The position numbers and the translations under genes were made by a program. Below the pieces are notes generated by a model that was given only the letters and a program-made list of their open reading frames with translations, had not been told where the DNA came from and did no database searches. Positions 1,988-63,924 of a DNA stretch of 64,000 nt are shown piece after piece (the first letter of the stretch is position 1; each line of letters starts with the position of its first letter). The stretch comes from Candidatus Omnitrophota bacterium (GTDB taxonomy: Bacteria > Omnitrophota > Omnitrophia > Omnitrophales > Aquincolibacteriaceae): positions 12,090-76,089 of the forward strand of contig JAHFHG010000002.1 of the NCBI GenBank assembly GCA_023247035.1. The letters are read 5' to 3'.

Positions 1988-3124
1988 ATGGCAGAAGAGG
2001 CCGTAAAAATTTCCGTGCCTTATTTTGATCTTACGCGCCAGCGCCGCGAGCTGTCTTCGCAGCTCGAAACGGTTTTGAAGGACGTTTTAGAATCGGGCCA
2101 ATACGTCCTGTCGAGCGCCGTCCGGGACTTTGAAAACGCTTTTGCCCGATTCTGCGGGAGTCCCTATGCCGTGGGCGTAGGTTCAGGGACAGACGCCTTG
2201 ATTTTTGCCCTCAAGGCTTGCGGGATCGAAAAAGGGGATGAAGTCGTCGTCCCTTCTTTCACTTTTATCGCCAGCGCTTTTGGCATTTCTCATGCCGGAG
2301 CCCGGCCTGTTTTTGCGGACGTGGATCCCCGGACTTATACTCTAGATCCCGCCTCCGTCGAAAAAGTTTTAACCCGGCGGACGCGCGCGATTTTACCCGT
2401 TCATTTATACGGCCAGGCCGCGGATATGGAGCCGCTCCTTGCGCTGGCAAAAGAAAAAAAATTAAAAGTCATTGAAGATGCCTGCCAGGCTCACGGCGCC
2501 TTGTGGAAGAATAAAAAAGCCGGAACCCTGGGAGATGCGGGCTGTTTCAGCTTTTATCCTACGAAGAACCTTGGAGCGATCGGAGACGGGGGAATGGTCC
2601 TGACCTCGAAGGCCTCGCGCGCCGAAAGTGTCCGGCGGCTGGGCAATTTGGGACGCACGAGCCTAAAAGATCCGCACTGGGAATTCGGCTGGACGAGCCG
2701 CCTCGATGCGCTGCAGGCGGGAGTTTTGAGCGTCAAGCTGAAATTTTTGGACTCCTTTAATGAAAAACGAAGGAAGATCGCGGAGCGTTACAAAAAAAAT
2801 CTAAAGGATACGCCGCTGGTTCTTCCTTATGAGCGGGAAGATGGCCGGCACGTTTATCATCTTTTCGTGGTCCGGGTCCCGAACCGCCGGCGCGGCCCTT
2901 TGCAAAAATTCCTTCAGGAAGAAGGGGTGCCGACGAGGGTTCATTATCCGCAGCCAATCCACCGGCAGCCTCCTTACCTTGAGTTTGCCAAGGCTTTGAA
3001 ACGCCTTCCGGTTACGGAAATGCTTGCAAAGGAAATCCTCTCGCTTCCGATCTTTCCTGAAATGAAAGAAGAAGAAATTGACCGCGTTTGCGAAGTGATC
3101 AGGCGGTTTTACGGTATGGGTTAA
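1988..3124 (+). CDS. DegT/DnrJ/EryC1/StrS-family PLP-dependent sugar aminotransferase
   Basis: N-terminus SVPYFDLTRQ...ESGQYVL, a central GDEVVVPSFTF motif and a 378-aa length typical of the family. Confidence 0.85.
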   Translation: MAEEAVKISVPYFDLTRQRRELSSQLETVLKDVLESGQYVLSSAVRDFENAFARFCGSPYAVGVGSGTDALIFALKACGIEKGDEVVVPSFTFIASAFGISHAGARPVFADVDPRTYTLDPASVEKVLTRRTRAILPVHLYGQAADMEPLLALAKEKKLKVIEDACQAHGALWKNKKAGTLGDAGCFSFYPTKNLGAIGDGGMVLTSKASRAESVRRLGNLGRTSLKDPHWEFGWTSRLDALQAGVLSVKLKFLDSFNEKRRKIAERYKKNLKDTPLVLPYEREDGRHVYHLFVVRVPNRRRGPLQKFLQEEGVPTRVHYPQPIHRQPPYLEFAKALKRLPVTEMLAKEILSLPIFPEMKEEEIDRVCEVIRRFYGMG

Positions 3125-3135
3125 TCCAAACTTCA

Positions 3136-3675
3136 ATGGAGAAGATTATTTTCATCGACCGGGACGGAGTCATCAACGTGGACCCGATCGGCGATTACGT
3201 GAAATCCTGGGAGGAGTTCAAATTTGAAAACGGGGCGCTTGAGGGGCTTAAAATTCTCTCGGACCGCGGTTACGGGATCATTTTGATTTCCAATCAGGCG
3301 GGCATCGGCGACGGTGTTTTTTCCAAAGAAACCTTAGACGATATTCACCGGAAGATGCTGGAAGTCTTTGCCGGCCGGGGTATCCGGATACGCTCCTCGC
3401 ACTACTGCCTGCACGGCAAAAATGCAGGCTGCAAATGCCGCAAACCCGAAACCGGATTATTCCAGGCCGCCGTGAAGGGGATACAATATGATCCGCAGCG
3501 GACTTTTTTGATAGGAGATAAGGCAACCGATATGGAGGCCGGCGTCCGGTTCGGGATCAAGACTATTTTTGTACGGACCGGACACGGAATTTTTGACGAA
3601 CCCCGGCTTGAGGGAAGATTCAAACCGGATTTTATCGCCGATTCGCTCACGGATGCCGTAAAACTTTTACCATGA
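3136..3675 (+). CDS. gmhB: HAD-IIIA phosphatase, D,D-heptose 1,7-bisphosphate phosphatase (GmhB)-like
   Basis: KIIFIDRDGVIN and ISNQAGIG motifs plus a Cys cluster (CLHGKNAGCKC). ATG at 3136 chosen inside the longer ORF. Confidence 0.65.
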   Translation: MEKIIFIDRDGVINVDPIGDYVKSWEEFKFENGALEGLKILSDRGYGIILISNQAGIGDGVFSKETLDDIHRKMLEVFAGRGIRIRSSHYCLHGKNAGCKCRKPETGLFQAAVKGIQYDPQRTFLIGDKATDMEAGVRFGIKTIFVRTGHGIFDEPRLEGRFKPDFIADSLTDAVKLLP

Positions 3676-4808
3676 AAATTTTAATTTTTCACGCCCCGGC
3701 CGGGCACGGGCACCGCCAGGTCGCGGAAGTCATCGCCGAGACCTTTCGAAAGCGCGGCTTTTCTTCCGACGAAGTAAAAGTCACGGACGCGCTGGAATCG
3801 ACCCCCTTTTTTTTCAAAAAGTCCTACCCTGCCGTTTATTTTAATGCGGTCAAATACCTTCCCAAGATTTGGGGCTGGGTCTATGAGACCTTGGACCGGC
3901 CCGGAATTTACCGGTTTTTAAGGCCTTTGCGTCGTTTTTTTAACAGGCTCACGGGCGCCAGGCTCCTCGGCGAGGTTATCGCTCAAGGGCCGGACGTTAT
4001 CATCTGCGCTCATTTTTTTTCCGCGGAACTTTTTGCGACCGCCAAAAAAAGAGGCGAACTCAACGCCCTGCTGGTTACGGTCATTACGGATTTTTATCCC
4101 CATAGCTTTTGGGTCAATGACGGGACCGACGTTTACTGGGTGATGAGCGAGGAAGGAAAAATGGCCTTAAAAGAGCGCGGGGTGGATGAAAAACAGATTC
4201 ATCCCGGAGGAATTCCGGTCGCGTACGCCTTTAAGCCTTCGGGGCGCAAAGAGGAACTCTTGCGAAGATGGAATTTTTCCAAGGAAAGGATGACGCTTCT
4301 TTTCACAAGCGGCAGCTTCGGCCTGGGTTCGCAAGGGCTTTTATTAAAAGCCCTCGAGCCGTTCAAAGATAAAATCCAATGTTTTGTCGTCTGCGGAATG
4401 AATGAAAAATTGAATACGCTGCTGCGCGCGCGGGCTTTTGAATTTCCCGTTCAAGTTTTCGGATTTGTCCATTTTATGGCCGATCTGATGGAAGCCAGCG
4501 ACCTGATCCTCACCAAATGCGGCGGCTCAACCACCACCGAAGCCCTCGCCAAAGGCGTCCCGATAGTCGTGATGGATCCGATTCCCGGCCAGGAAACGCG
4601 CAACGCCCATTTATTAAAAGCGCGCAACGCCGCTTTTTTCATCGAAAAGCCGGATCAAATTTTTCTTATCCTCAAAGTCATTTTTGAACACCCTGAAATC
4701 CTCGCGGCAAAACATTCCGAGATTCAGCAACTCGCAAAACCCAATGCCGCCGATGACCTCGTCACATTCATTTTAGAGCTTTTAAAAAAGGCGGCGCATG
4801 AAATCTAA
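3672..4808 (+). CDS. GT28-family glycosyltransferase (MGDG synthase / processive diacylglycerol glycosyltransferase-like)
   Basis: N-terminus MKILIFHAPAGHGHRQVAEVIAE and the C-terminal GT-B donor-binding region KCGGSTTTEAL. Confidence 0.7.
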   Translation: MKILIFHAPAGHGHRQVAEVIAETFRKRGFSSDEVKVTDALESTPFFFKKSYPAVYFNAVKYLPKIWGWVYETLDRPGIYRFLRPLRRFFNRLTGARLLGEVIAQGPDVIICAHFFSAELFATAKKRGELNALLVTVITDFYPHSFWVNDGTDVYWVMSEEGKMALKERGVDEKQIHPGGIPVAYAFKPSGRKEELLRRWNFSKERMTLLFTSGSFGLGSQGLLLKALEPFKDKIQCFVVCGMNEKLNTLLRARAFEFPVQVFGFVHFMADLMEASDLILTKCGGSTTTEALAKGVPIVVMDPIPGQETRNAHLLKARNAAFFIEKPDQIFLILKVIFEHPEILAAKHSEIQQLAKPNAADDLVTFILELLKKAAHEI

Positions 4809-7668: not shown

Positions 7669-8157
7669 ATGGCGCTTCTGAAAATCCGAACCTATCCCGA
7701 TCCTATTTTGAACAAAAAGGCCGAGCCGCTCACCGATTTTGGCCCCGACACGCAGCGTCTTTTCGACGATATGATTCAGACGATGTACGTCGAAGACGGC
7801 GTGGGATTGGCCGCGCCGCAGGTCGGCATTTCCAAACGGATTTTGATCGCTTCGCCGGCGATGAAACAGGGCGAAGAGTTCGTGATCGTGAATCCCGAAG
7901 TTTATTCTTTTTCCGGCCGCGAGTCCGGAATCGAAGGGTGCCTGAGCCTGCCGGGCATCAGCGGGGAGGTCGTGCGCGCCCAAAAAATACGCGTGCGTTA
8001 TCAGGACCGTTTTGGGAAAGCCTTCGATCTCGAAGCCAAGGATTTTTTTGCGCGGATTATCCAGCACGAAATAGATCATTTAGACGGGATTCTGCTTATC
8101 GACCGCCTCAACTTCCATCAACGCCAGGAAGCGCTGGCCCAGTACAAACGTTTCTAA
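7669..8157 (+). CDS. def: Peptide deformylase
   Basis: The three def motifs are present: GVGLAAPQVG, EGCLSLPG and HEIDHLDG. Confidence 0.9.
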   Translation: MALLKIRTYPDPILNKKAEPLTDFGPDTQRLFDDMIQTMYVEDGVGLAAPQVGISKRILIASPAMKQGEEFVIVNPEVYSFSGRESGIEGCLSLPGISGEVVRAQKIRVRYQDRFGKAFDLEAKDFFARIIQHEIDHLDGILLIDRLNFHQRQEALAQYKRF

Positions 8158-10482: not shown

Positions 10483-11130
10483 ATGAAAGTATCGGTCATC
10501 ATTCCCACCTTTAATGAAGAGAAGAGAATTTACAGCACTCTCGAAAATTTATTTTCAAAACATTTGCCTGAGGAAGTGATCGTCGTAGACGGTGAATCGA
10601 CCGACCAGACCGTCTCGGTCGCAAACGAATGGACAAAGGTCGTACGGACTTTTAAAGGCCGCGCGCGCCAGATGAACGAAGGGGTTCGGGCCGCTTCAGG
10701 AGGGATCCTTCTTTTCCTTGACGCGGGAACGAGGCTCCCCGAAGACGGCATCCTTAAACTTAAATACGCCATCCGAGAAGGCGCCAAGGCCGGGCGGTTT
10801 CGAATAAGTTTCGACAATGCCCACTGGGTTTTAAAACTCTGCGCGGCTTATACGCAATTTCAGTTGTTTCCGTTCGGCAGCCAGGGATTTTTTGTCCGCC
10901 GCGAGGTCTTTGAAGCGCTGGGCGGTTTTCGCCCCGACGCGCCGTTTGAAGACGTCGATTTTTATATGAGGCTTCTTTCTATCACGAGGCCCGTTATTAT
11001 AAAAGAAGCTGTCGTGGCTTCCGCGCCGAACCTCAGCGGCTCAGGCTGGCTCTGGAAAAAAATCGTCAAGCGGTTTCTGATCAGCCTCTACTACGCCGTC
11101 CACAAAAGCCTTCTTCTTAGAAAAAACTAA
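10483..11130 (+). CDS. Glycosyltransferase family 2
   Basis: MKVSVIIPTFNEEKRI ... VVDGESTDQT ... FLDAGTRL. Confidence 0.75.
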   Translation: MKVSVIIPTFNEEKRIYSTLENLFSKHLPEEVIVVDGESTDQTVSVANEWTKVVRTFKGRARQMNEGVRAASGGILLFLDAGTRLPEDGILKLKYAIREGAKAGRFRISFDNAHWVLKLCAAYTQFQLFPFGSQGFFVRREVFEALGGFRPDAPFEDVDFYMRLLSITRPVIIKEAVVASAPNLSGSGWLWKKIVKRFLISLYYAVHKSLLLRKN

Positions 11131-11137
11131 TTTCAGA

Positions 11138-11290
11138 CTTGAGTTCCGCGAATTTCCAAATTCATAGAGTATCGCTTTTTGTGAGACAAGCGGTTGTCAT
11201 GTCCGCGTCCGCCGATAATCGGCGGGAAAGCGGCCCCGATAAAAACATTCAAGAATGACGGAAAGAAAAGCAAAATCCGCGGAACTCAAG
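11138..11290. repeat. MITE-like palindromic repeat, copy 1 (terminal inverted repeats TTGAGTTCCGCGAATTT / AAATCCGCGGAACTCAA), carrying a roughly 35 nt internal insertion relative to copy 2
   Basis: Near-identical to 18620-18733. The perfect TIRs were read directly in the sequence. Confidence 0.6.
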
Positions 11291-11615
11291 TTCAGAATTA
11301 GGCCATTAGGCCAAGCTCTCTTGGCTGAGGGTTTTGATTTTGGAGGCCTTAACTCCTTGATCCCGCGCGCGTTTGGCTTATTTATTTTTTTTAAGAAGAC
11401 TTCTTCTCGAAATTTTTAATCTTCGCAAGGTTGCTAATTTTTACAATCCTGTTACGGTTTAAGTTAGGGCATGAAATGGAAAAACTTTTCGGGAACCCGG
11501 AGATCCCAAAAATAGGCCGGGCAGCCCAAGATTTCATCGCCAAGCCTTTTGACTCTGGAGCGGCATAAGTAAAAATTTACCGCCAAAATTAGAGATCAAA
11601 GAGGAGAGGAGAATT

Positions 11616-17549: not shown

Positions 17550-18617
17550 GTGCCCGAAATTCTTAAATTAAAAAGCCCTGCGGATTTCATCGGACGGCAG
17601 GGCGCGGGCGTGATCAGTTTTGGTTCCGGCCAGCCGGACCTGCCGCCTCCCAAAGAAGCGTTTGACGGGATCGATCTCAAAAGGGATCTCCGTTACGGGC
17701 TCATTCAAGGAGAATTAAAACTCCGCGAGGCGCTGGCCAAGGAATATCCCGGCTCCACGGCTGAGAACTTCGTGATTACAAACGGGGCGTCCGAAGCGCT
17801 GGACCTGATTTTCCGAAGCTGGGGCAAGGGCGGAAAGGTGCTGCTGCCGCGTCCTTATTATTATTCCTACCCTCCGATTATTGAGCTGGCCCATATGGTT
17901 CCTGTTTATACGGATTTAACCGACGGGCGGATTGATATTGAGGATTTCAAGAAAAAGGTGAAGGGCTGCCGCGCGGCGCTGATCAATTCGCCGTCTAATC
18001 CGACGGGCCGCGTCGAGGCGATCGAGACGCTCAAGGGGATTGAAAAGATCACGCAGAAGCTCGGTGTTTATGTGGTCTCCGACGAGGTGTACAAAGATAT
18101 CATTTACGAGCGCGAAAATTATCCTATTCAGGGCGATTACGTGATCACGGTCAATTCGTTTTCCAAAACCTACTGTATGTGCGGCGTGCGCGTGGGGTAT
18201 TTGTGGAGCGCGGATAAAAAGGTCGTGGAAGACGTGTGCGAGATGAAGACGCACACTTCAATGAATACAAATCTGATCGGGCAGGATATGGCGCTTAGCG
18301 CAATGAAGACGCCGAAGGAATATATCCGCCGGCAGCAGAAGGTCTGGCGCGAGCGGCGCGATTTCATTTATAAAGGGCTCACGGAACTGGGTTTTGATCT
18401 TTGGAAGCCGGAAGGCGCGTTTTATGTCCTGCCCAAGTGCAAGAACGCGCGCAAATTTCTGAGCGTGCTGTATCAGGAATACAAAGTGATTACCTACCTC
18501 GGCGAGTGGTTCGGCGCGCCCGATAGAATCCGCTTGAGCTACGCCCTCGATATTCAGCAGATCGCGGAAGGGTTGGAGCGGATTAAACAAGCCATGCAAA
18601 AGGTGAGGGTCTTTTAG
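17550..18617 (+). CDS. Class I/II PLP-dependent aminotransferase (aspartate aminotransferase superfamily)
   Basis: NSFSKTYCMCGVRVGY with the PLP-lysine context. GTG start. Confidence 0.8.
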   Translation: MPEILKLKSPADFIGRQGAGVISFGSGQPDLPPPKEAFDGIDLKRDLRYGLIQGELKLREALAKEYPGSTAENFVITNGASEALDLIFRSWGKGGKVLLPRPYYYSYPPIIELAHMVPVYTDLTDGRIDIEDFKKKVKGCRAALINSPSNPTGRVEAIETLKGIEKITQKLGVYVVSDEVYKDIIYERENYPIQGDYVITVNSFSKTYCMCGVRVGYLWSADKKVVEDVCEMKTHTSMNTNLIGQDMALSAMKTPKEYIRRQQKVWRERRDFIYKGLTELGFDLWKPEGAFYVLPKCKNARKFLSVLYQEYKVITYLGEWFGAPDRIRLSYALDIQQIAEGLERIKQAMQKVRVF

Positions 18618-18619
18618 AT

Positions 18620-18733
18620 GTTGAGTTCTGCGAATTTCCGAATTCATGGAGTATCGCTCTTTGTAAGACAAGCGCTGTCATTCCCGATAAAAACATTCAT
18701 GACGGAAAGAAAAACAAAATTTGCGGAACTCAA
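18620..18733. repeat. MITE-like palindromic repeat, copy 2
   Basis: Aligns almost base-for-base with 11138-11290 and has terminal inverted repeats. Confidence 0.6.
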
Positions 18734-18942
18734 ATTAGATCCTACTGGGAATACAATGAATACTACAAGATGACAATGAATTGAAAAAGAGAATTGCTCC
18801 AATTCAAAGTGCAAATTAAAATAAATCCGCAAGCGCCAACTCACGCTGTTCGGCGGGGAAGGGTAAAGCGGGATACCGGCATCGAACCCGTGTTTCCGTC
18901 TTGGGAACCCAAAAGTAGAACAGTGGAGGGCACAAAAGGAAA

Positions 18943-19173
18943 ATGAATCTCCTCACAATTTTTGGTTTGTTCGCAGTAACGGCGATGCTGGTGTGTTACG
19001 CGCTTGAGCAGAGAAGCCGGTGGTTCATTCTGGCCTTTGCAGGCGCGTGTGCCCTCGGATCGGTCTACGGATTTTTACAGGCGGCATGGCCTTTCGGCCT
19101 GGTTGAGGCAGTCTGGTCCGTAGTGGCTGTGCGGCGGTGGTCGCTGGCAGTGAAATCGACAAGCGCTGTATGA
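18943..19173 (+). CDS. Small membrane hypothetical protein (2 predicted TM helices)
   Basis: Hydrophobic 76-aa ORF whose stop overlaps the next start (ATGA). Confidence 0.35.
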   Translation: MNLLTIFGLFAVTAMLVCYALEQRSRWFILAFAGACALGSVYGFLQAAWPFGLVEAVWSVVAVRRWSLAVKSTSAV

Positions 19174-19511
19174 AAATCATAAAAGAAAAACTCAGCCTTG
19201 ATGAATTGAAACAGATGGCGGCCGCGATGTTCGGGGACATGGTGAAGGCTGTTGTCGACGCGGACCGTGAATGGATCGCCATTGATGCGGAACTTCATTC
19301 CGATCTTGAGGCTCTGCTTTTGGAAAGCGGATCTCAACAAAGCAGTCTCTGGGGAATCAACCTTTATCCCGGCGCGCAGGAGCAAGATTTTTTGGAATTC
19401 GATTCCATGATCAACATGCGTCCTTCCGGCGGCAATCAAAGCCGGGGCGTCGAAAGTGAAGCCGTGCGAAAAAAAATCCGCGCCGTCGTTTCAAAAAGAA
19501 TCCCGCGATGA
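19170..19511 (+). CDS. Hypothetical protein
   Basis: ORF translationally coupled (ATGA) to both of its neighbours. Confidence 0.4.
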   Translation: MKIIKEKLSLDELKQMAAAMFGDMVKAVVDADREWIAIDAELHSDLEALLLESGSQQSSLWGINLYPGAQEQDFLEFDSMINMRPSGGNQSRGVESEAVRKKIRAVVSKRIPR

Positions 19512-29850: not shown

Positions 29851-30020
29851 GGCGGAGCCGGCTTCCGCAACGGATCTTTTGCCTTCGCCGGATTTTCAAT
29901 TCTTTCTAACATTCAGGATCATTTTCAGTCTTCGGCTCAAAAGCGCATTCTGCGCATTTGATCTTACAAAACGAACCGCTATAATTAATGAAACACGGGC
30001 GGCAGGAAATCGAACCCTTC

Positions 30021-33000
30021 ATGAAAACCATCTCTTTATTCCAGAAACCCAGCGCGATTTTTTTAATCTTTTCTTTAAGCCTTTCCCAAAGTCCCTCGTA
30101 TGCCGCTGCCGCGCCGGCGCCTCCGCTGGCGGTTTCTGAGCGCTCCCGGGCGCTTCTTTTTCTTCCCGAAGAACTTGGCGAGATCGAAGAATCCTTTCAG
30201 GGATCGAACGGAAAAACCGTGATCTTCATTCAAGACGCCCACGATTCCCTCGAAGCGCAGGAAAATATCGCCAAGACTATTCAATACCTGGTGGACAAGT
30301 ACGGGGTGAAGACTGTTTTTGAAGAAGGCTATGAAGGTCCTGTTCCCACGGATGATTATTTCGGCTTCATCAAAGATCCGTCCGTCAAAGAGAAAGTTTC
30401 TTACTTTTTATTAGATAAACTCCGCCTCGGCGGCGCGGAATACGCACACATCAACCGCTTTCACAACTTGTCATTCCCGCACGCGTTAAGCGGGAATCCA
30501 AATTTTAGGTCCCCGATAGAAACATTCGGGGACGACAAAAAACGTGTCGATTTCAAACTGATTGGGGCAGACAATATAAAGTTACATCTTGAGAATATCG
30601 ATTGGTATCGCCAGAATGCCAAGCATAAAGAAGAAACTGGAAGAGATTTGACTATTCTGCAAAATGAAATCGACAAACTTGCCAACCGGTATTTTCCTAA
30701 GGAACTCAAAGAATGGATGAAGCTTAAGAAAAGGTTTGATGAGAAACAAATTGATCTTTTGGATTATTTAAAGCGGACAATACAAGTCCCTCATCGAGAA
30801 TCCATAGACCATAAACTTTACCCCAATCTTTCGCTTCTCCTTCAAGCAGAACACACTCAAGACAAAGAAGTCCTAGAGAAAGTGAAAACCATTGAAGCCA
30901 AGATTCTTTTCGAGGAAATCGATTCGTTGGAAAACGCCGCCGCCGGCCCATTCCTACAAAATGGAACAGACCGGAAAATCTTCCAATATTACAAAGGAAT
31001 AAATCTTCTCAAAAGACTCAACGAGATTGAGATTACGCCCGCTGAATATGAGGCGGTCAAAGCGCAGCTTCAACATCTCAGCACCCAGGAACTGGCCCAA
31101 TTTATTGTCCAGCAAACGAATAAATCCATCGTCCTTTCCAAACGATGGGAGGAAAATATTGAAAGCGCCATTCGGTTTTATCAAATCTCACGAGCCAGAG
31201 ATTCTGCGATTGCCGAGCGACTGAATGATTTTCTTAAAAATCATGATGAAAAAGTGGCTGTCCTTGTCTTTGGAGGATTTCATAAAGAGAGGATTACAGA
31301 ATTGTTGAGAAAGAAAGGACTCCCTTACTATATAGTTTCTCCTCGAATAATGAACGTCGACAATAAGCATAAGGAACTCTACGCGCATTTAATGACAAAG
31401 GGATATTCGCTTTTCCCCGTTGCGGCAAATGTTGCTAAGGCAGCGCGTTTAGCAGGAGAGATCGAGCTCGCGGAAATGGGCGGCCAGAACGCAAAGTCAG
31501 AACTCCGAGCGTACCATGCGGCAATCACTAACATTGTTTCTTCATTGGTCTCCAATCGACCCAATCAAACATCTCGAGAACTGCTCGATCGTTTGATTAA
31601 CGGACGATTGATACACGAAGTTCTAAAAGTATCCAAACAAGCAATGGGAAAACGCCGATCCGAACTAAGAAGTAAAGAATCGGATTTTGCTTTAAGAGAA
31701 AAACGCCGTGATTATCTCAAGCGGCTAATGAATCAAGAAAATAAGCAATGGACGTTGGATGAGTTAGCAAACGCTACAGGTCAATCAACAGGACAGATTG
31801 TTAAGGATTTGCGATATTTGAATCTTTTTAAGCCCTCAAATCACCTAAATTTAGATGCCGAACGCATAGACCGAAGAAGACAGTGGGGATTACCAGATTA
31901 TTCTGACCTCGATAAGCTTTTACCTCGCTTGGATGAAGAATTTGCATATCTTCATGGAGAGGCTCTTTTTAATTTTTTAGCTCAAAAAGGCCGCGAGAAT
32001 GACCCCGTAAGCATGGAAGCGGCTATTTACGGCTTCTATAAATTTGTTGGAGAAAAAACCCCCGGTAATATTTCAGAACGAGGGCGATTGCTTGGTGAAC
32101 GCATTTATCACTATCTGAGGTTAAGAGAAAGTATGCCTTCTGACGGCCTGCGTCGAAATCCAGATGTTGAGTTCGATATTGGTATGGCAGAAAAAAGGAA
32201 GCGGGAGTCACGGCTTCCAAAATTTGGAAATATAAAAACAAGGAGGCCGAAGAAGAAAGTTTCTTTTTCGGAAGCACAGCAAATTATGGAAGAAAAAAAT
32301 TTACATTTAGATCAATCAATCGCATTCGTTGCGTTGTCCACGGCAGAAAATGAAACTTTATTTCGAGCGCTTAAATCAAGCGAATTGGAAGAGTCCGAGC
32401 GAAGACAAATTTATGATTATTTGATTCAGAAGCATGTAGGGTTTGTCGGCTGGTGGATCAAACATAAGATGCCGCCTTGGTATTTTGAACATTTTAACTT
32501 CGAAGAACTTTTAGCTTTTGGCCAAATTGGCCTTATGAAAACGATTGAAAGATATGATTTCAAAATGGGGCGGCGCTTTACCAGTTATGCCGAATGGTGG
32601 ATTCGCCATTCTATCCAACGCTCCATAGAGAAAAAAACACATAAATCTTTAAATGTCAGGCGTGATGAGGATAGCCCGGAGTGGATTGATACTTTGTCGG
32701 ATTCAAAAGATCAATCGGAAGAAGAATTATGGCCGGAACTATTTTCCAGTCTTAGGCATCTCGATAGTCGGTCTCGCATTATGTTGAGCTTGCGTTACGG
32801 GATTGGATCAGTAAGAACATACAATCTTCGAGAAATTGGCTTAATGTTTGGTGTAACTCACGAGCGTGTTAGACAAATTACAGAAAGAGCAGTTGAAAAG
32901 TTAAAACGCTTGGTTGGAAAAGTAACGGTTGATGATTCTTCTCAAGACCATACCGATGTTTTTTTATTCGAGGCTATGGAGTTAGAGCCAGAGAATCCAC

Positions 33001-36000
33001 TTTTCAAGCCACTAAGCCATCTCGGAGTTAAAAAGCTTGACCGGATTCGAGAAGTTCTTTCAAAAGAAAATCGCTTCAACTCGGAAATGCTGATGAGGAT
33101 TTTTAGGTCACGCGGCCAGTATGTGATAGCTCCATCGAAATATTTATGGGGTCTGCCTGCGGGTTTGCTTGAAACCGGCGGTGACACTTCCCATCATTTT
33201 GGATCGTGGAATGAAGAAGGTGGAAGACATAACATAGATTTACAAAAACCCAAAAAGATTCATTTTTCCAACGCACTCACAACCACAACCGAAATCATAA
33301 AAAGGTATCCTTATGCTCGGTATCTACTGCCTCCTGAAGAACAACTATTGCTGGCCTCTCAGGCTCAAGGAGAAAGGAGCCGATTCTATGCTTTGGGTAA
33401 GACATTGCAGTGGATTGGACTTTCTCCGCAAGATTTTATTATTTGGCTTGTTGAAAATAAAAAATATTTAGATCAAGAAATCGTTGATTTTATCGCACAA
33501 TCACCACTTTCTAAACGTCCTCGATACGAGCTAACGGCATCCCGCACAGGTGAGCATCTTCATGGGTCTTTACCAAGACCACGTACTGACCGAAAGATTG
33601 CAACGAAATGGATTTCAACTGAAGAAACCAGCTACACGCTAATCACACCTGCTGAATTGGCGGACCGCTTCCCTTCTGCCGAACCCTTCTTGGATAAACT
33701 CGAACCTCAATTACTTCTTGAGGCGGATTCGTCCGAGCATGATGAAATTAAATACTATTCTTTTGTTGAAGATGGACATCATACAAAAATTCTAATAAGG
33801 ATCAATAAAAGAACCGGCGAAATCCAAAGTCCTCATGATGGCCCAATCGGTTTTAGAAAGGAAATTTTGGATTTTGTAAGAAAAGGTGAGTTTGGCAATA
33901 AGCAAAAGCCTCCTGTTACCGCGCCTTTTGAAATGCACGCCGGATCACGGCATTTTATTTATTTCGGAACGATGGGGAAAGGTTCCATTGGCTTGAGTAT
34001 GAAGGGAGTGAAACCTAACACGCGTGTATCAGGAAGCGCTGTTCATTTGGAGCATGCTCCTCTTGGAATGGGGCCGCAATGGCTTTTAAGACTCACTGTT
34101 CATTTGAAAAGACCAAGAGTTGTTTATGCGAGATTCAAACGCTCTGGAACCCGCTTAGGTTTATTTAAAAAATCCCCTCAAACTTATATCGGAGCTTTTG
34201 TCAAACTTGGGAAATGGAATCAGGAAAAAATCCAGCCATTCCCTGAAAATGAAATCGAAATTACCGCGAGTTCCAAAGGACGTTTGGAACTTGGAAGCAA
34301 TGGCGATGGAGAGCGGATTGTTATTCACTTACCACTTTTACCCAAAGATCATAAAGTTTTAATTCGAAAAGTCCGCAATCAAGAAGATGGACAACAGCTC
34401 TTGGTCGTTCATACCCGCAATCCTGCTTATCGATATAGAAAATTTTATTATCGATTCACGAATCGTGGCTATCACACCCGAAGATACCACGAGGAAGTAA
34501 AGGACATAAGTCCCACGGCTAGAAGGAAGCTTAGCTATGAAGAAATTGCAAAGGCACAAGAAGATTTGAGAAGCCGAGAAGGAGCAGAGGCAAACTTATG
34601 GCGCGATCCCGAAAAGATTGCTTATGAGCTTGACCTATTCGACGCTTATTATCTTGTTTCGGAAGTTCAAAGAATAAACGCTTCTTTAGTTGCTCAAGAC
34701 ACAGCTAATTTGCCGCCTCTCGAAATAGACACCTCAAAGATTGTTGAGCTGCCGACTCCGGCTTACGATCAAGTAGGAGACGTTTATCATGCTGTTCCAG
34801 AATCTTCTGAGCGACCGGAGAAATCCGAGAAACCAGTCAAACCTAAACCATTATCCCCTTTAAGACTTGCTCAAAAAAGATTGGAAGAAGCTGAAAAAAA
34901 AACATTAGCTGAACGTTTGAAGGTTGGCTTTCGAGATGTGGGAGAAAGCGGTCGGTTTTTAGATTTGGGCGCAGGAAAGGGTGATTTAACCGCTGAACTT
35001 GCTGGACAATTTCAAGGTGGGGTTGCAGTCGAAATAAATGAAGATCGAGTCGAGCAGCTACGGCAGAGAAAAATTCCAAATCTTAATATTTGGGACATGG
35101 ATTTTTTTGATTATATGGAGATGGCGATTAAAGGGAATCAGCTTTTTGATGCGATTCTCATTTCACATGCTCTTTTATTCATTAAATTTGATCGCCGGGA
35201 CGCTTTCTTAAAAGATGTTCTATCAAGACTTAAGCCGAATGGAAAATTAGCGATTATTTTAAATGGCAGTAAAATTGAAGAGAGAAACCAAGTTCAGTTG
35301 CGAGCAAAGCTCATGAGAAAGCATGAGGCGCTAGCAGGAGACAACCCATCAACCAATATTGAAAGCAAACTGCGACAAATCGGCTATGGGGTACAAACCG
35401 AAAGAGTCAGAATCATTCATGAGACTCCTTCCAGAGACGAAATGATTTCTATTGTAAAAGCAATATTGCCACGCGAAGACCGTTTTCGTCTGTCGAATAT
35501 CACTGGATTTGTCGATTCAGTCCTGAAATTACCTGGAGAAGAAAAGTACCGCCTCTATGTTGATCAAGATATTTTATGGATAACACATCCTCGTTCTGAG
35601 GTTAGAAAGCAAGAAAATGTATTTGCAATGGTGTCTGTCAACGATTGGCAAAACTTTAATCGAACTAATCAGAATACCGAGGCTACGGCCACCAAAGCCG
35701 TCGTTTTTATAGATGGTTCCGTCGATAGCAAAGATGCCAAGCAGCGGGCGGAAGAATTAGCGGTGCTGGCCGCAGGTAATCCGAACCGAACGATTGTGGT
35801 TTATAATGCGGACAAAGTTTTTAAAAATAAAGGCGGTGAAATGGCGGAACTTTTAAAGTCGTTTGGTCTCGCCAATGTCAAGTTCGCTGCGGGTGAGTTG
35901 TCCGAAGCCCTCAAGCCCTACCAATTCCGGGATCAAGTTGATTTGGTGCACTACTCGGCAAGCGAAGAGGAGGCTGTTTTTGTTCAAGCCTCCGTTGGGA

Positions 36001-36209
36001 AATGGCTGGCGCAAAAACTGACCCGATTTGTCGGAGGGCCCGGCGCCTTAGGATACGGAATAAAATATTTGCAGGCTGTGAAATTGGGCAAGCCTGTGGA
36101 AGGTATCACGCCCGAGAACGGCTACTACGCCGTTTCCCCAGGCGCTTCGGAGTGGATGCGAAGCCTTTATCGAGCTCGGTTCGCGACCGTTTTCGCTCAA
36201 GCGGCGTGA
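30021..36209 (+). CDS. Giant multidomain protein (about 2060 aa): signal-peptide-like N-terminus, TraB/GumN/TIKI-like domain, sigma-70 region 2 plus region 4 module, central unknown region, class I SAM-methyltransferase motif, unknown C-terminus
   Basis: Uninterrupted 6.2 kb frame in AT-rich DNA. Motifs IFIQDAHDS...VLVFGGFHKERITELLRKKGLPYYIV; GQIGLMKTIERYDFKMGRRFTSYAEWWIRHSIQRSI; LREIGLMFGVTHERVRQITERAVEKL; FLDLGAGKGDLT. Confidence 0.7.
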   Translation: MKTISLFQKPSAIFLIFSLSLSQSPSYAAAAPAPPLAVSERSRALLFLPEELGEIEESFQGSNGKTVIFIQDAHDSLEAQENIAKTIQYLVDKYGVKTVFEEGYEGPVPTDDYFGFIKDPSVKEKVSYFLLDKLRLGGAEYAHINRFHNLSFPHALSGNPNFRSPIETFGDDKKRVDFKLIGADNIKLHLENIDWYRQNAKHKEETGRDLTILQNEIDKLANRYFPKELKEWMKLKKRFDEKQIDLLDYLKRTIQVPHRESIDHKLYPNLSLLLQAEHTQDKEVLEKVKTIEAKILFEEIDSLENAAAGPFLQNGTDRKIFQYYKGINLLKRLNEIEITPAEYEAVKAQLQHLSTQELAQFIVQQTNKSIVLSKRWEENIESAIRFYQISRARDSAIAERLNDFLKNHDEKVAVLVFGGFHKERITELLRKKGLPYYIVSPRIMNVDNKHKELYAHLMTKGYSLFPVAANVAKAARLAGEIELAEMGGQNAKSELRAYHAAITNIVSSLVSNRPNQTSRELLDRLINGRLIHEVLKVSKQAMGKRRSELRSKESDFALREKRRDYLKRLMNQENKQWTLDELANATGQSTGQIVKDLRYLNLFKPSNHLNLDAERIDRRRQWGLPDYSDLDKLLPRLDEEFAYLHGEALFNFLAQKGRENDPVSMEAAIYGFYKFVGEKTPGNISERGRLLGERIYHYLRLRESMPSDGLRRNPDVEFDIGMAEKRKRESRLPKFGNIKTRRPKKKVSFSEAQQIMEEKNLHLDQSIAFVALSTAENETLFRALKSSELEESERRQIYDYLIQKHVGFVGWWIKHKMPPWYFEHFNFEELLAFGQIGLMKTIERYDFKMGRRFTSYAEWWIRHSIQRSIEKKTHKSLNVRRDEDSPEWIDTLSDSKDQSEEELWPELFSSLRHLDSRSRIMLSLRYGIGSVRTYNLREIGLMFGVTHERVRQITERAVEKLKRLVGKVTVDDSSQDHTDVFLFEAMELEPENPLFKPLSHLGVKKLDRIREVLSKENRFNSEMLMRIFRSRGQYVIAPSKYLWGLPAGLLETGGDTSHHFGSWNEEGGRHNIDLQKPKKIHFSNALTTTTEIIKRYPYARYLLPPEEQLLLASQAQGERSRFYALGKTLQWIGLSPQDFIIWLVENKKYLDQEIVDFIAQSPLSKRPRYELTASRTGEHLHGSLPRPRTDRKIATKWISTEETSYTLITPAELADRFPSAEPFLDKLEPQLLLEADSSEHDEIKYYSFVEDGHHTKILIRINKRTGEIQSPHDGPIGFRKEILDFVRKGEFGNKQKPPVTAPFEMHAGSRHFIYFGTMGKGSIGLSMKGVKPNTRVSGSAVHLEHAPLGMGPQWLLRLTVHLKRPRVVYARFKRSGTRLGLFKKSPQTYIGAFVKLGKWNQEKIQPFPENEIEITASSKGRLELGSNGDGERIVIHLPLLPKDHKVLIRKVRNQEDGQQLLVVHTRNPAYRYRKFYYRFTNRGYHTRRYHEEVKDISPTARRKLSYEEIAKAQEDLRSREGAEANLWRDPEKIAYELDLFDAYYLVSEVQRINASLVAQDTANLPPLEIDTSKIVELPTPAYDQVGDVYHAVPESSERPEKSEKPVKPKPLSPLRLAQKRLEEAEKKTLAERLKVGFRDVGESGRFLDLGAGKGDLTAELAGQFQGGVAVEINEDRVEQLRQRKIPNLNIWDMDFFDYMEMAIKGNQLFDAILISHALLFIKFDRRDAFLKDVLSRLKPNGKLAIILNGSKIEERNQVQLRAKLMRKHEALAGDNPSTNIESKLRQIGYGVQTERVRIIHETPSRDEMISIVKAILPREDRFRLSNITGFVDSVLKLPGEEKYRLYVDQDILWITHPRSEVRKQENVFAMVSVNDWQNFNRTNQNTEATATKAVVFIDGSVDSKDAKQRAEELAVLAAGNPNRTIVVYNADKVFKNKGGEMAELLKSFGLANVKFAAGELSEALKPYQFRDQVDLVHYSASEEEAVFVQASVGKWLAQKLTRFVGGPGALGYGIKYLQAVKLGKPVEGITPENGYYAVSPGASEWMRSLYRARFATVFAQAA
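30470..30536. repeat. Second copy of the double-hairpin unit, located inside the coding sequence of the giant ORF (read through in frame)
   Basis: TTGTCATTCCCGC...GCGGGAATCC...GTCCCCGATAGAAACATTCGGGGACGAC aligns with 14389-14445. Confidence 0.5.
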
Positions 36210-63116: not shown

Positions 63117-63924
63117 GAAAAGCGGCAAGGGGCCGGGCATTGGGACGGCGCTGGCCGCAGGAGTTAAACTTTCGGCCCAATTCGTCGTCAAGGCCTTTCC
63201 CTTTTTTCTCCTTCTGGTTGCGGCCGCGGCCCTTGGGTTCGGCATTCGAAGCGCTTTATATGCCGATTCGTATTTAAGCATTCAGAAGATTGCCGTGAAA
63301 CCGCCGGAGGCGCTTGCTGTAAAACATTTGGAGCGGCTCAAGGAAAGGCTTCTGGGGAAGAACATTTTGGCGCTGGACATTCAGAGCGTCGCTGAAGAAC
63401 TGGAGCGGGATCCGGAAATCCGCACAGCCCGCGTTCATAAATTGCTGCCCTTTGAACTGGAGATTGAGATTGAAAAGCGCGCTCCTTTTGCTTTTCTCCG
63501 GCTTCCGGGCAAGGGCGCCTACGGGATCATTTCTGAAGACGGCATGATTCTGGATACTGTCCCGGAGCGCAATGTTTCGGGCCTTATCGTGGAAGCCTCA
63601 GACCTCGGCGTTGGAAATCCTTCTGCTGGAAAAAAAGTTGAGATCCGCGGATTGGAAGACGCGGTGAAATTTTCCGGAGAATTCCAAAATCATATCCTGG
63701 CCCGGTATGAAACGCTTACAAAAATAGATTTGGATCACTTGGGGAATGCGACGATCACCTTAGGCCGCGGGCCGGCGGTCCGGCTGGGCCGGCGTCCTAC
63801 GGAAAAGCTGGCCGCGCTGGAGCAGGTTTTGCCTCTCATCGAAGGACAAGGCCGCGAAAAAATTGATTACATTGACTTGGAGTTTGAAAATGTCATCATC
63901 AAACATAAACGGGGAGTGAAATGA
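63097..63924 (+). CDS. ftsQ: Cell division protein FtsQ/DivIB (single TM, POTRA)
   Basis: Basic N-terminus, a TM helix and a POTRA-like region; positioned between ddl and ftsA. Confidence 0.7.
   Translation: MAKKRRKKSGKGPGIGTALAAGVKLSAQFVVKAFPFFLLLVAAAALGFGIRSALYADSYLSIQKIAVKPPEALAVKHLERLKERLLGKNILALDIQSVAEELERDPEIRTARVHKLLPFELEIEIEKRAPFAFLRLPGKGAYGIISEDGMILDTVPERNVSGLIVEASDLGVGNPSAGKKVEIRGLEDAVKFSGEFQNHILARYETLTKIDLDHLGNATITLGRGPAVRLGRRPTEKLAALEQVLPLIEGQGREKIDYIDLEFENVIIKHKRGVK

Follow-up and report, generated by a model that had tools for sequence, protein, structure and literature searches.

The Correia elements of Neisseria are repeats with 26-bp ends and a TA duplication that occur in hundreds of copies, and to our knowledge no parent insertion sequence (IS) has been identified for them. 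RUP of Streptococcus pneumoniae, a miniature inverted-repeat transposable element (MITE) of about 107 bp, is believed to rely on a resident IS with matching ends, whose transposase would move it in trans. The parent of RUP belongs to the IS630 family and targets TA. Correia elements are named in a review (PMC10969869) that also cites RUP, which is cited in PMC3049150 as well. According to the criteria in this review, a type II MITE is 50-500 bp long, has inverted ends and target-site duplications (TSDs), carries no transposase, can form a stem-loop, and resembles an IS at its ends only (PMC10969869). A further kind of small repeat, the Rickettsia palindromic elements, consists of small palindromic repeats that sit in frame within protein-coding genes (PMC10969869). 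In the literature that we searched, no paper paired Omnitrophica with the term "miniature inverted-repeat", and the parent IS proposed below was likewise not found there.

Here we analyzed a 64-kb stretch of Candidatus Omnitrophota DNA (the window, positions 1-64000), in which two short sequences are very probably copies of a type II MITE, with ends that match those of a 1211-bp IS and presumably mobilized in trans by that IS. They represent a new family of a well-known kind: they are ordinary selfish DNA and not a purpose-built terminator. Like the prokaryotic type II MITEs of PMC10969869, the two sequences (153 and 115 nt) fall within the expected size range, have terminal inverted repeats (TIRs) and TSDs, carry no transposase, would form a stable stem-loop if transcribed, share ends with an autonomous IS while their similarity to it is limited to those ends, and belong to a family whose members are mostly intergenic. 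The features of the locus are collected in Table 1.

Table 1. Features of the two MITE copies and their surroundings. Positions are those of the window except in the last row, where they are those of the relatives' contigs.
Feature	Position	Strand	Basis or remark
MITE copy 1, 153 nt, long form	11138..11290	+	Sequence, alignment, TIR search
MITE copy 2, 115 nt, short form	18620..18734	+	Sequence, alignment, TIR search
Left TIR of copy 1, TTGAGTTCCGCGAATTT	11139..11155	+	15 of 17 positions equal to the IS TIR TTGAGTTCTGCAAATTT
Right TIR of copy 1, reverse complement TTGAGTTCCGCGGATTT	11273..11289	-	TIR search, alignment
Left TIR of copy 2, TTGAGTTCTGCGAATTT	18621..18637	+	16 of 17 positions equal to the IS TIR TTGAGTTCTGCAAATTT
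Right TIR of copy 2, reverse complement TTGAGTTCCGCAAATTT	18717..18733	-	TIR search, alignment
Copy-1-specific 33-nt hairpin module with palindrome CCGCCGATAATCGGCGG (11209-11225)	11201..11233	+	Alignment; without counterpart in copy 2
Left TSD of copy 1, TTCAGA	11132..11137	.	Direct repeat; begins 2 nt past the GT2 stop codon
Right TSD of copy 1, TTCAGA	11291..11296	.	Direct repeat
Left TSD of copy 2, TTAGAT	18614..18619	.	Direct repeat; includes the aminotransferase stop TAG (18615-18617)
Right TSD of copy 2, TTAGAT	18735..18740	.	Direct repeat
Family-2 glycosyltransferase (GT2) gene, upstream of copy 1	10483..11130	+	Pfam PF00535, E = 6.9e-20
Class I/II aminotransferase gene, upstream of copy 2	17550..18617	+	Pfam PF00155, E = 2.8e-51
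Terminator-like hairpin followed by TGATTTTGGA, outside the element, 23 nt downstream of copy 1	11313..11334	+	Terminator scan
Aminotransferase terminators in relatives	L139 11069-11110; L142 1473-1510		Position occupied by MITE copy 2 in the window

The window holds two MITEs in its 64 kb. Copy 1 begins with TTGAGTTCCGCGAATTTCC and ends with AAAATCCGCGGAACTCAA, copy 2 begins with TTGAGTTCTGCGAATTTCC and ends with AAAATTTGCGGAACTCAA, and the TIR core common to both is TTGAGTTCYGCR. Paired as inverted repeats, the 17-bp TIRs of copy 1 agree at 16 of 17 positions and those of copy 2 at 15 of 17. In a global alignment the copies agreed at 103 of 115 aligned positions (89.6% identity). Copy 1 is longer by the 33-nt hairpin module, whose palindrome occurs once in the 64-kb window, and by a further 4 nt (AAGA, 11251-11254). 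A tblastn search with the 362-aa transposase of the 1211-bp IS found no homologue in the window. The first-pass annotation had described two copies of an element with 17-bp TIRs, about 90% identical over roughly 115 nt, with some 35 extra nucleotides and a palindrome of their own in copy 1, and with no transposase nearby. This description held in every respect, including the exact coordinates of copy 1, with the single correction that copy 2 ends at 18734 and not at 18733.

The ends stand out from the background of the window. Allowing up to three mismatches, the 17-mer end matched at five sites, four of which are the four element ends; the expectation from shuffled sequence was 0.96 +/- 1.04 sites, and none of 100 dinucleotide shuffles reached five. 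The fifth site (63638-63654), which has three mismatches, is at chance level and unpaired, and was rejected as an element end. At the same locus of the same strain, an ENA contig (L001, 6548-6698) carries a copy 100% identical to copy 1; the strain is present in the samples ERZ27276474 (ENA) and SRR14366783.

Both copies are bracketed by a perfect 6-bp direct repeat of their own, and the two TSDs differ in sequence. These repeats also place the element boundaries, which we set one base beyond each TIR (outside TTGAG...CTCAA). For random placements in the window, the probability of a 6-mer match in a fixed register is 4e-4 per element. A register giving a TSD of 8-9 bp was tried and discarded: there the flanks matched at only 6-7 of 8 positions, whereas shifting the boundary one base outward gave a perfect 6 bp (7 bp in L083). 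In the same register, TSDs were found around related elements, namely TTATGT (L081), CTGAAA (L085), TTAAAA (L104) and the 7-bp TTATTGA (L083), and the flanks of L086 match as a duplication at 5 of 6 positions. Around the MITEs of L095 and L118 there was no clear duplication. Flanking TSDs were one of the tests that the first-pass annotation had proposed for a mobile element, and both copies pass it.

The site of insertion is similar in the two cases. The TIR of copy 1 starts 8 nt past the GT2 stop codon (11130) and that of copy 2 starts 3 nt past the aminotransferase stop codon (18617), in agreement with the 3-8 nt given earlier. Family-wide, counting ORFs of 100 aa or more, five of eight independent insertions lie 0-25 nt past a stop codon, and the insertion targets are A+T-rich and commonly begin with TTA. 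A preference for A+T-rich targets, with such sites clustering at gene ends, together with selection against insertions within genes is enough to explain why the elements recur 3' of genes. In copy 2 the left TSD contains the TAG stop, so the reading frame end of the aminotransferase was preserved on insertion. As for the wider surroundings, the long ORFs of the window are almost all on the + strand, and no tRNA gene was found in its 64 kb.

Elements with the same ends exist elsewhere. Across 185,579 species genomes, the 19-mer end TTGAGTTCYGCRAATTTCC matched at 23 loci, 18 of which are isolated chance matches within genes and five of which are two-ended short elements. Three of the five, which form a sister sub-family, are spread over three contigs of the MAG ERP125453_co1_477; two measure 133 nt, and the third reaches 283 nt through an insertion. 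Omnitrophica RIFCSPLOWO2_12_FULL_50_11 has a 65-nt copy between two tRNA genes, and Omnitrophica GWA2_52_8 has a 155-nt copy with these ends. Scanning metagenome contigs (JGI) added copies of 68 and 135 nt and more instances of the 65-nt and 155-nt elements. Elements with these ends and another interior thus span 65-283 nt. Their interiors (of the CCCCTCTCCCC...GGGGAGAGGG type) are unrelated to that of the window copies, the ends alone being common to all. The 19-mer scans of genome and metagenome contigs found no further copy with the window's interior, so that the sub-family defined by this interior comprises two copies across these scans, and a six-frame translation of both copies had no match at E <= 0.1 among 5.8 billion proteins. 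In viral contigs, the 17-mer end gave 71 matches and no inverted pair; each match was either an isolated chance hit or part of an unrelated tandem repeat of 15 nt.

Several of these loci have features of their own. The 65-nt mini-MITE at L083 384-448 lies between tRNA-Leu and tRNA-Ala genes, is bracketed by a 7-9-bp direct repeat GTTATTGAT, and has identical copies in L107 and L113. The 283-nt copy at L095 5332-5614, which directly adjoins the stop codon of a 1080-aa ORF, shares the left end; its right end is degenerate (CTCGA), and its interior is longer by about 150 nt, apparently through a nested insertion. The tandem repeats of 15-nt period that match the 17-mer end, unrelated to the element, are found in the viral contigs L011 (8023-8249) and L026 (4062-4258).

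A full-length IS with the same TIRs was another item on which the first-pass annotation had asked for a search, and one was found. This 1211-bp IS occupies L118 2965-4175; its 17-bp TIRs (TTGAGTTCTGCAAATTT) are perfect, and its single ORF, of 362 aa, lies at 3071-4159. Seven more same-ended IS copies of 1211-1235 bp were identified (L124, L126-L131). The IS copies carrying the cognate ends are located in other Omnitrophota contigs and metagenomes, outside the window's own genome. In L118, only 9 bp separate the IS from a same-ended 135-nt MITE. The surrounding region (L118 1415-4175) is a cluster of mobile elements, in which the gene of a transposase of the IS1380 family (432 aa, 275 bits) is followed by the 135-nt MITE and then by the 1211-bp IS.

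The 362-aa transposase matches the Pfam domains DDE_Tnp_1 (PF01609, E = 2.4e-19) and DDE_5 (PF13546, E = 2.7e-13). Its best NCBIfam model is that of the IS701 family (NF033540), at 136.2 bits, under the curated cut-off of 150, and its identity to transposases that carry an IS701-family annotation in plasmid records is 23-26%. The stretch YRQRFGIEIFHKDIK in its translation is compatible with the Y-2-R-3-E-6-K spacing, which is typical of IS4-superfamily enzymes. Judged from these matches, the parent transposase clearly belongs to the IS4/IS701 superfamily and is distantly IS701-like. Members of the IS701 family are about 1.4-1.55 kb long and make duplications of 4 bp, or of 5 bp in the ISAba11 group. 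The parent IS resembles them in its two DDE domains, its best NCBIfam match and its catalytic spacing, but differs in its length of 1211-1235 bp, its duplications of 6-7 bp and its score below 150. Because of the score under the cut-off and the mismatch in duplication and length, the presumed parent is best called an unclassified IS4/IS701-superfamily element.

Homologues of the transposase number 175 at E <= 1e-10. Among the best 120 of these 175, the named hosts are mainly Omnitrophica/Omnitrophota, and many homologues lie on contigs of 1.2-1.5 kb, often standing alone, as is expected for a repeat that breaks assemblies. Distant relatives, with transposases 50-55% identical, have the related ends ACTCGAGTTTGGCAC and AACTCGACTTTGGCAAAA, and a clean duplication of 7 bp (TAAACAA) flanks one of them. 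On most IS copies from short-read contigs a clean duplication is missing, probably because assemblers joined unrelated flanks across a multi-copy 1.2-kb repeat, leaving chimeric contigs. Several IS copies (L126, L129 and L118) have TAAC on one side and GTTA on the other, an arrangement that is inverted rather than direct. This could mean that the true IS ends lie 3-4 bp past TTGAG, or that the IS inserts at palindromic targets; the TAAC/GTTA extension is not shared by the MITEs.

From these observations a mechanism can be proposed. The 362-aa transposase, supplied in trans, would bind the inverted ends of the MITE and excise or copy it. The MITE would then insert through staggered cuts at an A+T-rich site, often TTAnnn, and repair of the cuts would create the direct duplication of 6-7 bp, which at copy 2 would re-create the TAG stop of the aminotransferase. 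Since only a few bases separate each copy from a stop codon, both would form part of the 3' untranslated region of the upstream gene's transcript, where the inverted ends would fold as a long hairpin. We infer that the element is mobile, that the 362-aa transposase moves the window copies, and that the IS is, or at one time was, part of the source genome. The copies are probably co-transcribed with their upstream genes, and an effect on mRNA stability or termination may follow.

Set against the described systems, the Omnitrophota elements resemble Correia elements in their similar size, in long and short forms that differ by an internal segment, in ends that form a hairpin, in lying next to genes, and in their likely co-transcription. 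By contrast, their ends (TTGAGTTCYGCR...) are unrelated in sequence and their duplications are of 6 bp, so they are not Correia elements. With RUP they share the proposed mobilization in trans by a same-ended IS, whereas the IS family, the TA target and the sequence of RUP are all different, and they are not RUP either.

The first-pass annotation had left two readings side by side, a non-autonomous mobile element or a transcription terminator or attenuator. The former is strongly supported by the TSDs, the same-ended IS and the non-paralogous flanks. The latter, in which the copies would be host-evolved structures whose long hairpin past the stop codon halts or modulates read-through into the downstream genes, seems to us very unlikely, although several observations fit it. 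Besides the position of both copies just beyond a stop codon, the predicted + strand folding energies are -51.1 and -32.7 kcal/mol for copies 1 and 2, both with z = -3.9 against shuffles. Three relatives (L139, L142 and L143) have a classical G+C-rich hairpin with a T-run directly past the aminotransferase stop, where the window has copy 2, and no terminator-like site was found on the + strand of 18400-19200, with none following copy 2 within 460 nt. Moreover, the review PMC10969869 judges it conceivable that MITE hairpins form terminators.

Nevertheless, neither copy contains a G+C-rich hairpin with a T-run, internally or at its 3' edge, and the bases past the closing TIR stem are GTTCAGAATT or ATTAGATCC. 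A separate terminator-like site follows copy 1 at a short distance (Table 1). The hairpin is formed by the inverted ends themselves: both strands of both copies fold chiefly through them, and the mismatches of the two copies show no consistent strand bias. Rfam families gave no match. The copies carry TSDs and share their ends with an IS that encodes a transposase, which explains their origin without invoking a function. As the identity of the element, a terminator or attenuator role is not supported; it is possible that termination or mRNA stabilization arises as a side consequence, and the terminators that L139, L142 and L143 have where the window has copy 2 speak for such an effect on termination.

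It is highly improbable that the copies are small structured RNA genes, or a palindromic cis-regulatory RNA, unconnected to transposition. Their folds are stable relative to shuffles and their location is intergenic, as such an RNA would have it. However, Rfam models matched nowhere in the window at gathering scores and in neither copy at E <= 1, promoter-like sites are absent inside both copies, the interior is unconserved among same-ended elements, the 33-nt indel falls in the middle of the fold, and neither TSDs nor a cognate IS are expected of an RNA gene. Lastly, a segmental duplication, or the copying of paralogous 3' regions along with their genes, which the first-pass annotation had named as the outcome that would overturn a dispersed element, can be dismissed almost with certainty: the sub-family is known from two copies only, separated by 7.4 kb and oriented alike on a single strand, but the similarity ends exactly at the inverted ends, the 100-nt flanks match at chance level (23/100 and 22/100), the upstream genes are unrelated (GT2 versus aminotransferase), each copy has its own 6-bp TSD, and the same ends are present in other genomes.

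We also compared the aminotransferase locus with its relatives. The closest named relatives of the aminotransferase are in Omnitrophica MAGs, that of GWA2_52_8 being 88% identical; the MITE with these ends in GWA2_52_8 sits on another contig than its aminotransferase. Past the aminotransferase stop, the element is absent in six contigs with aminotransferases 88-90% identical. In the DNA, homology to the syntenic contig L138 breaks off at 18620, with the element's first base, and picks up again at 19169. Among the relatives there was no clean empty site, as the sequence downstream of the aminotransferase differs in all of them and is unalignable.

A separate observation concerns the interior of the window MITEs. 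Their module TTGTCAT ... CCCGATAnAAACATTC ... GACG was detected by a repeat finder a second time at 30451-30528. Local alignment of this stretch with copy 1 scored 63.5, compared with 33.8 +/- 5.7 for shuffles and a maximum of 56.5 among 300. The 78 nt encode an in-frame insert, FHNLSFPHALSGNPNFRSPIETFGDD, within a 2073-aa ORF (29988..36209), placed between the conserved motifs GGAEYAHINR and KKRVDFKLIGAD. Among 130 homologue representatives with both flanking motifs, 98 have a minimal spacer of five residues at this site, and about a fifth (some 23 of the 130) have unrelated inserts of 11-66 aa exactly there, many of which read as translated palindromic repeats. Homologues with in-frame inserts include P0241, P0242, P0246, P0269, P0291 and P0347. 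In P0242 the insert is identical, though the best-matching stretch of this protein is merely 57% identical to the query. At the DNA level, a relative of the insert (GTCATTCCCGCACG ... TTAAGCGGGAATC ... CCCCGACTAAAACATTCGGGGATGAC) occurs at L104 6289-6415, and its first hairpin contains a nested stretch of about 60 nt; L104 also bears, at 7885-7952, a 68-nt MITE with TTGAGTTC ends. The L104 copy suggests a second dispersed repeat family.

We tentatively consider, as a possibility short of an even chance, that the MITE interior is not decayed IS sequence and is an independent small palindromic repeat (GTCATTCCCG ... CCCGATAnAAACATTC ... GAC), and that repeats resembling the Rickettsia palindromic elements colonize the site in the giant protein and are joined with IS ends in chimeric MITEs. 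The likeness to Rickettsia palindromic elements lies in the 78-nt insert and in the varied inserts of the homologues. The differences are that phylum and sequences are others, and that here many different inserts occur at one site of one protein family.

For annotation, the elements call for caution, in that they are not to be taken for regulatory RNAs or terminators. On the practical side, such repeats break short-read assemblies, and many copies of the IS are found alone on contigs of about 1.2 kb. For the host, the elements would put a hairpin-forming sequence of 115-153 nt in the 3' ends of transcripts, which could alter mRNA stability or read-through. With the present data, Candidatus Omnitrophota, an uncultivated phylum, now has a defined family of MITEs together with the IS that is probably its parent. 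The proposed mechanism is the one to be expected of a MITE, and the in-frame insertion hot spot is the more unusual lead. If the reading of the interior is true, repeats resembling the Rickettsia palindromic elements would colonize coding sequence in Omnitrophota at one favored site in a family of giant proteins, and the same repeats would also have been captured between IS ends, giving rise to chimeric MITEs.
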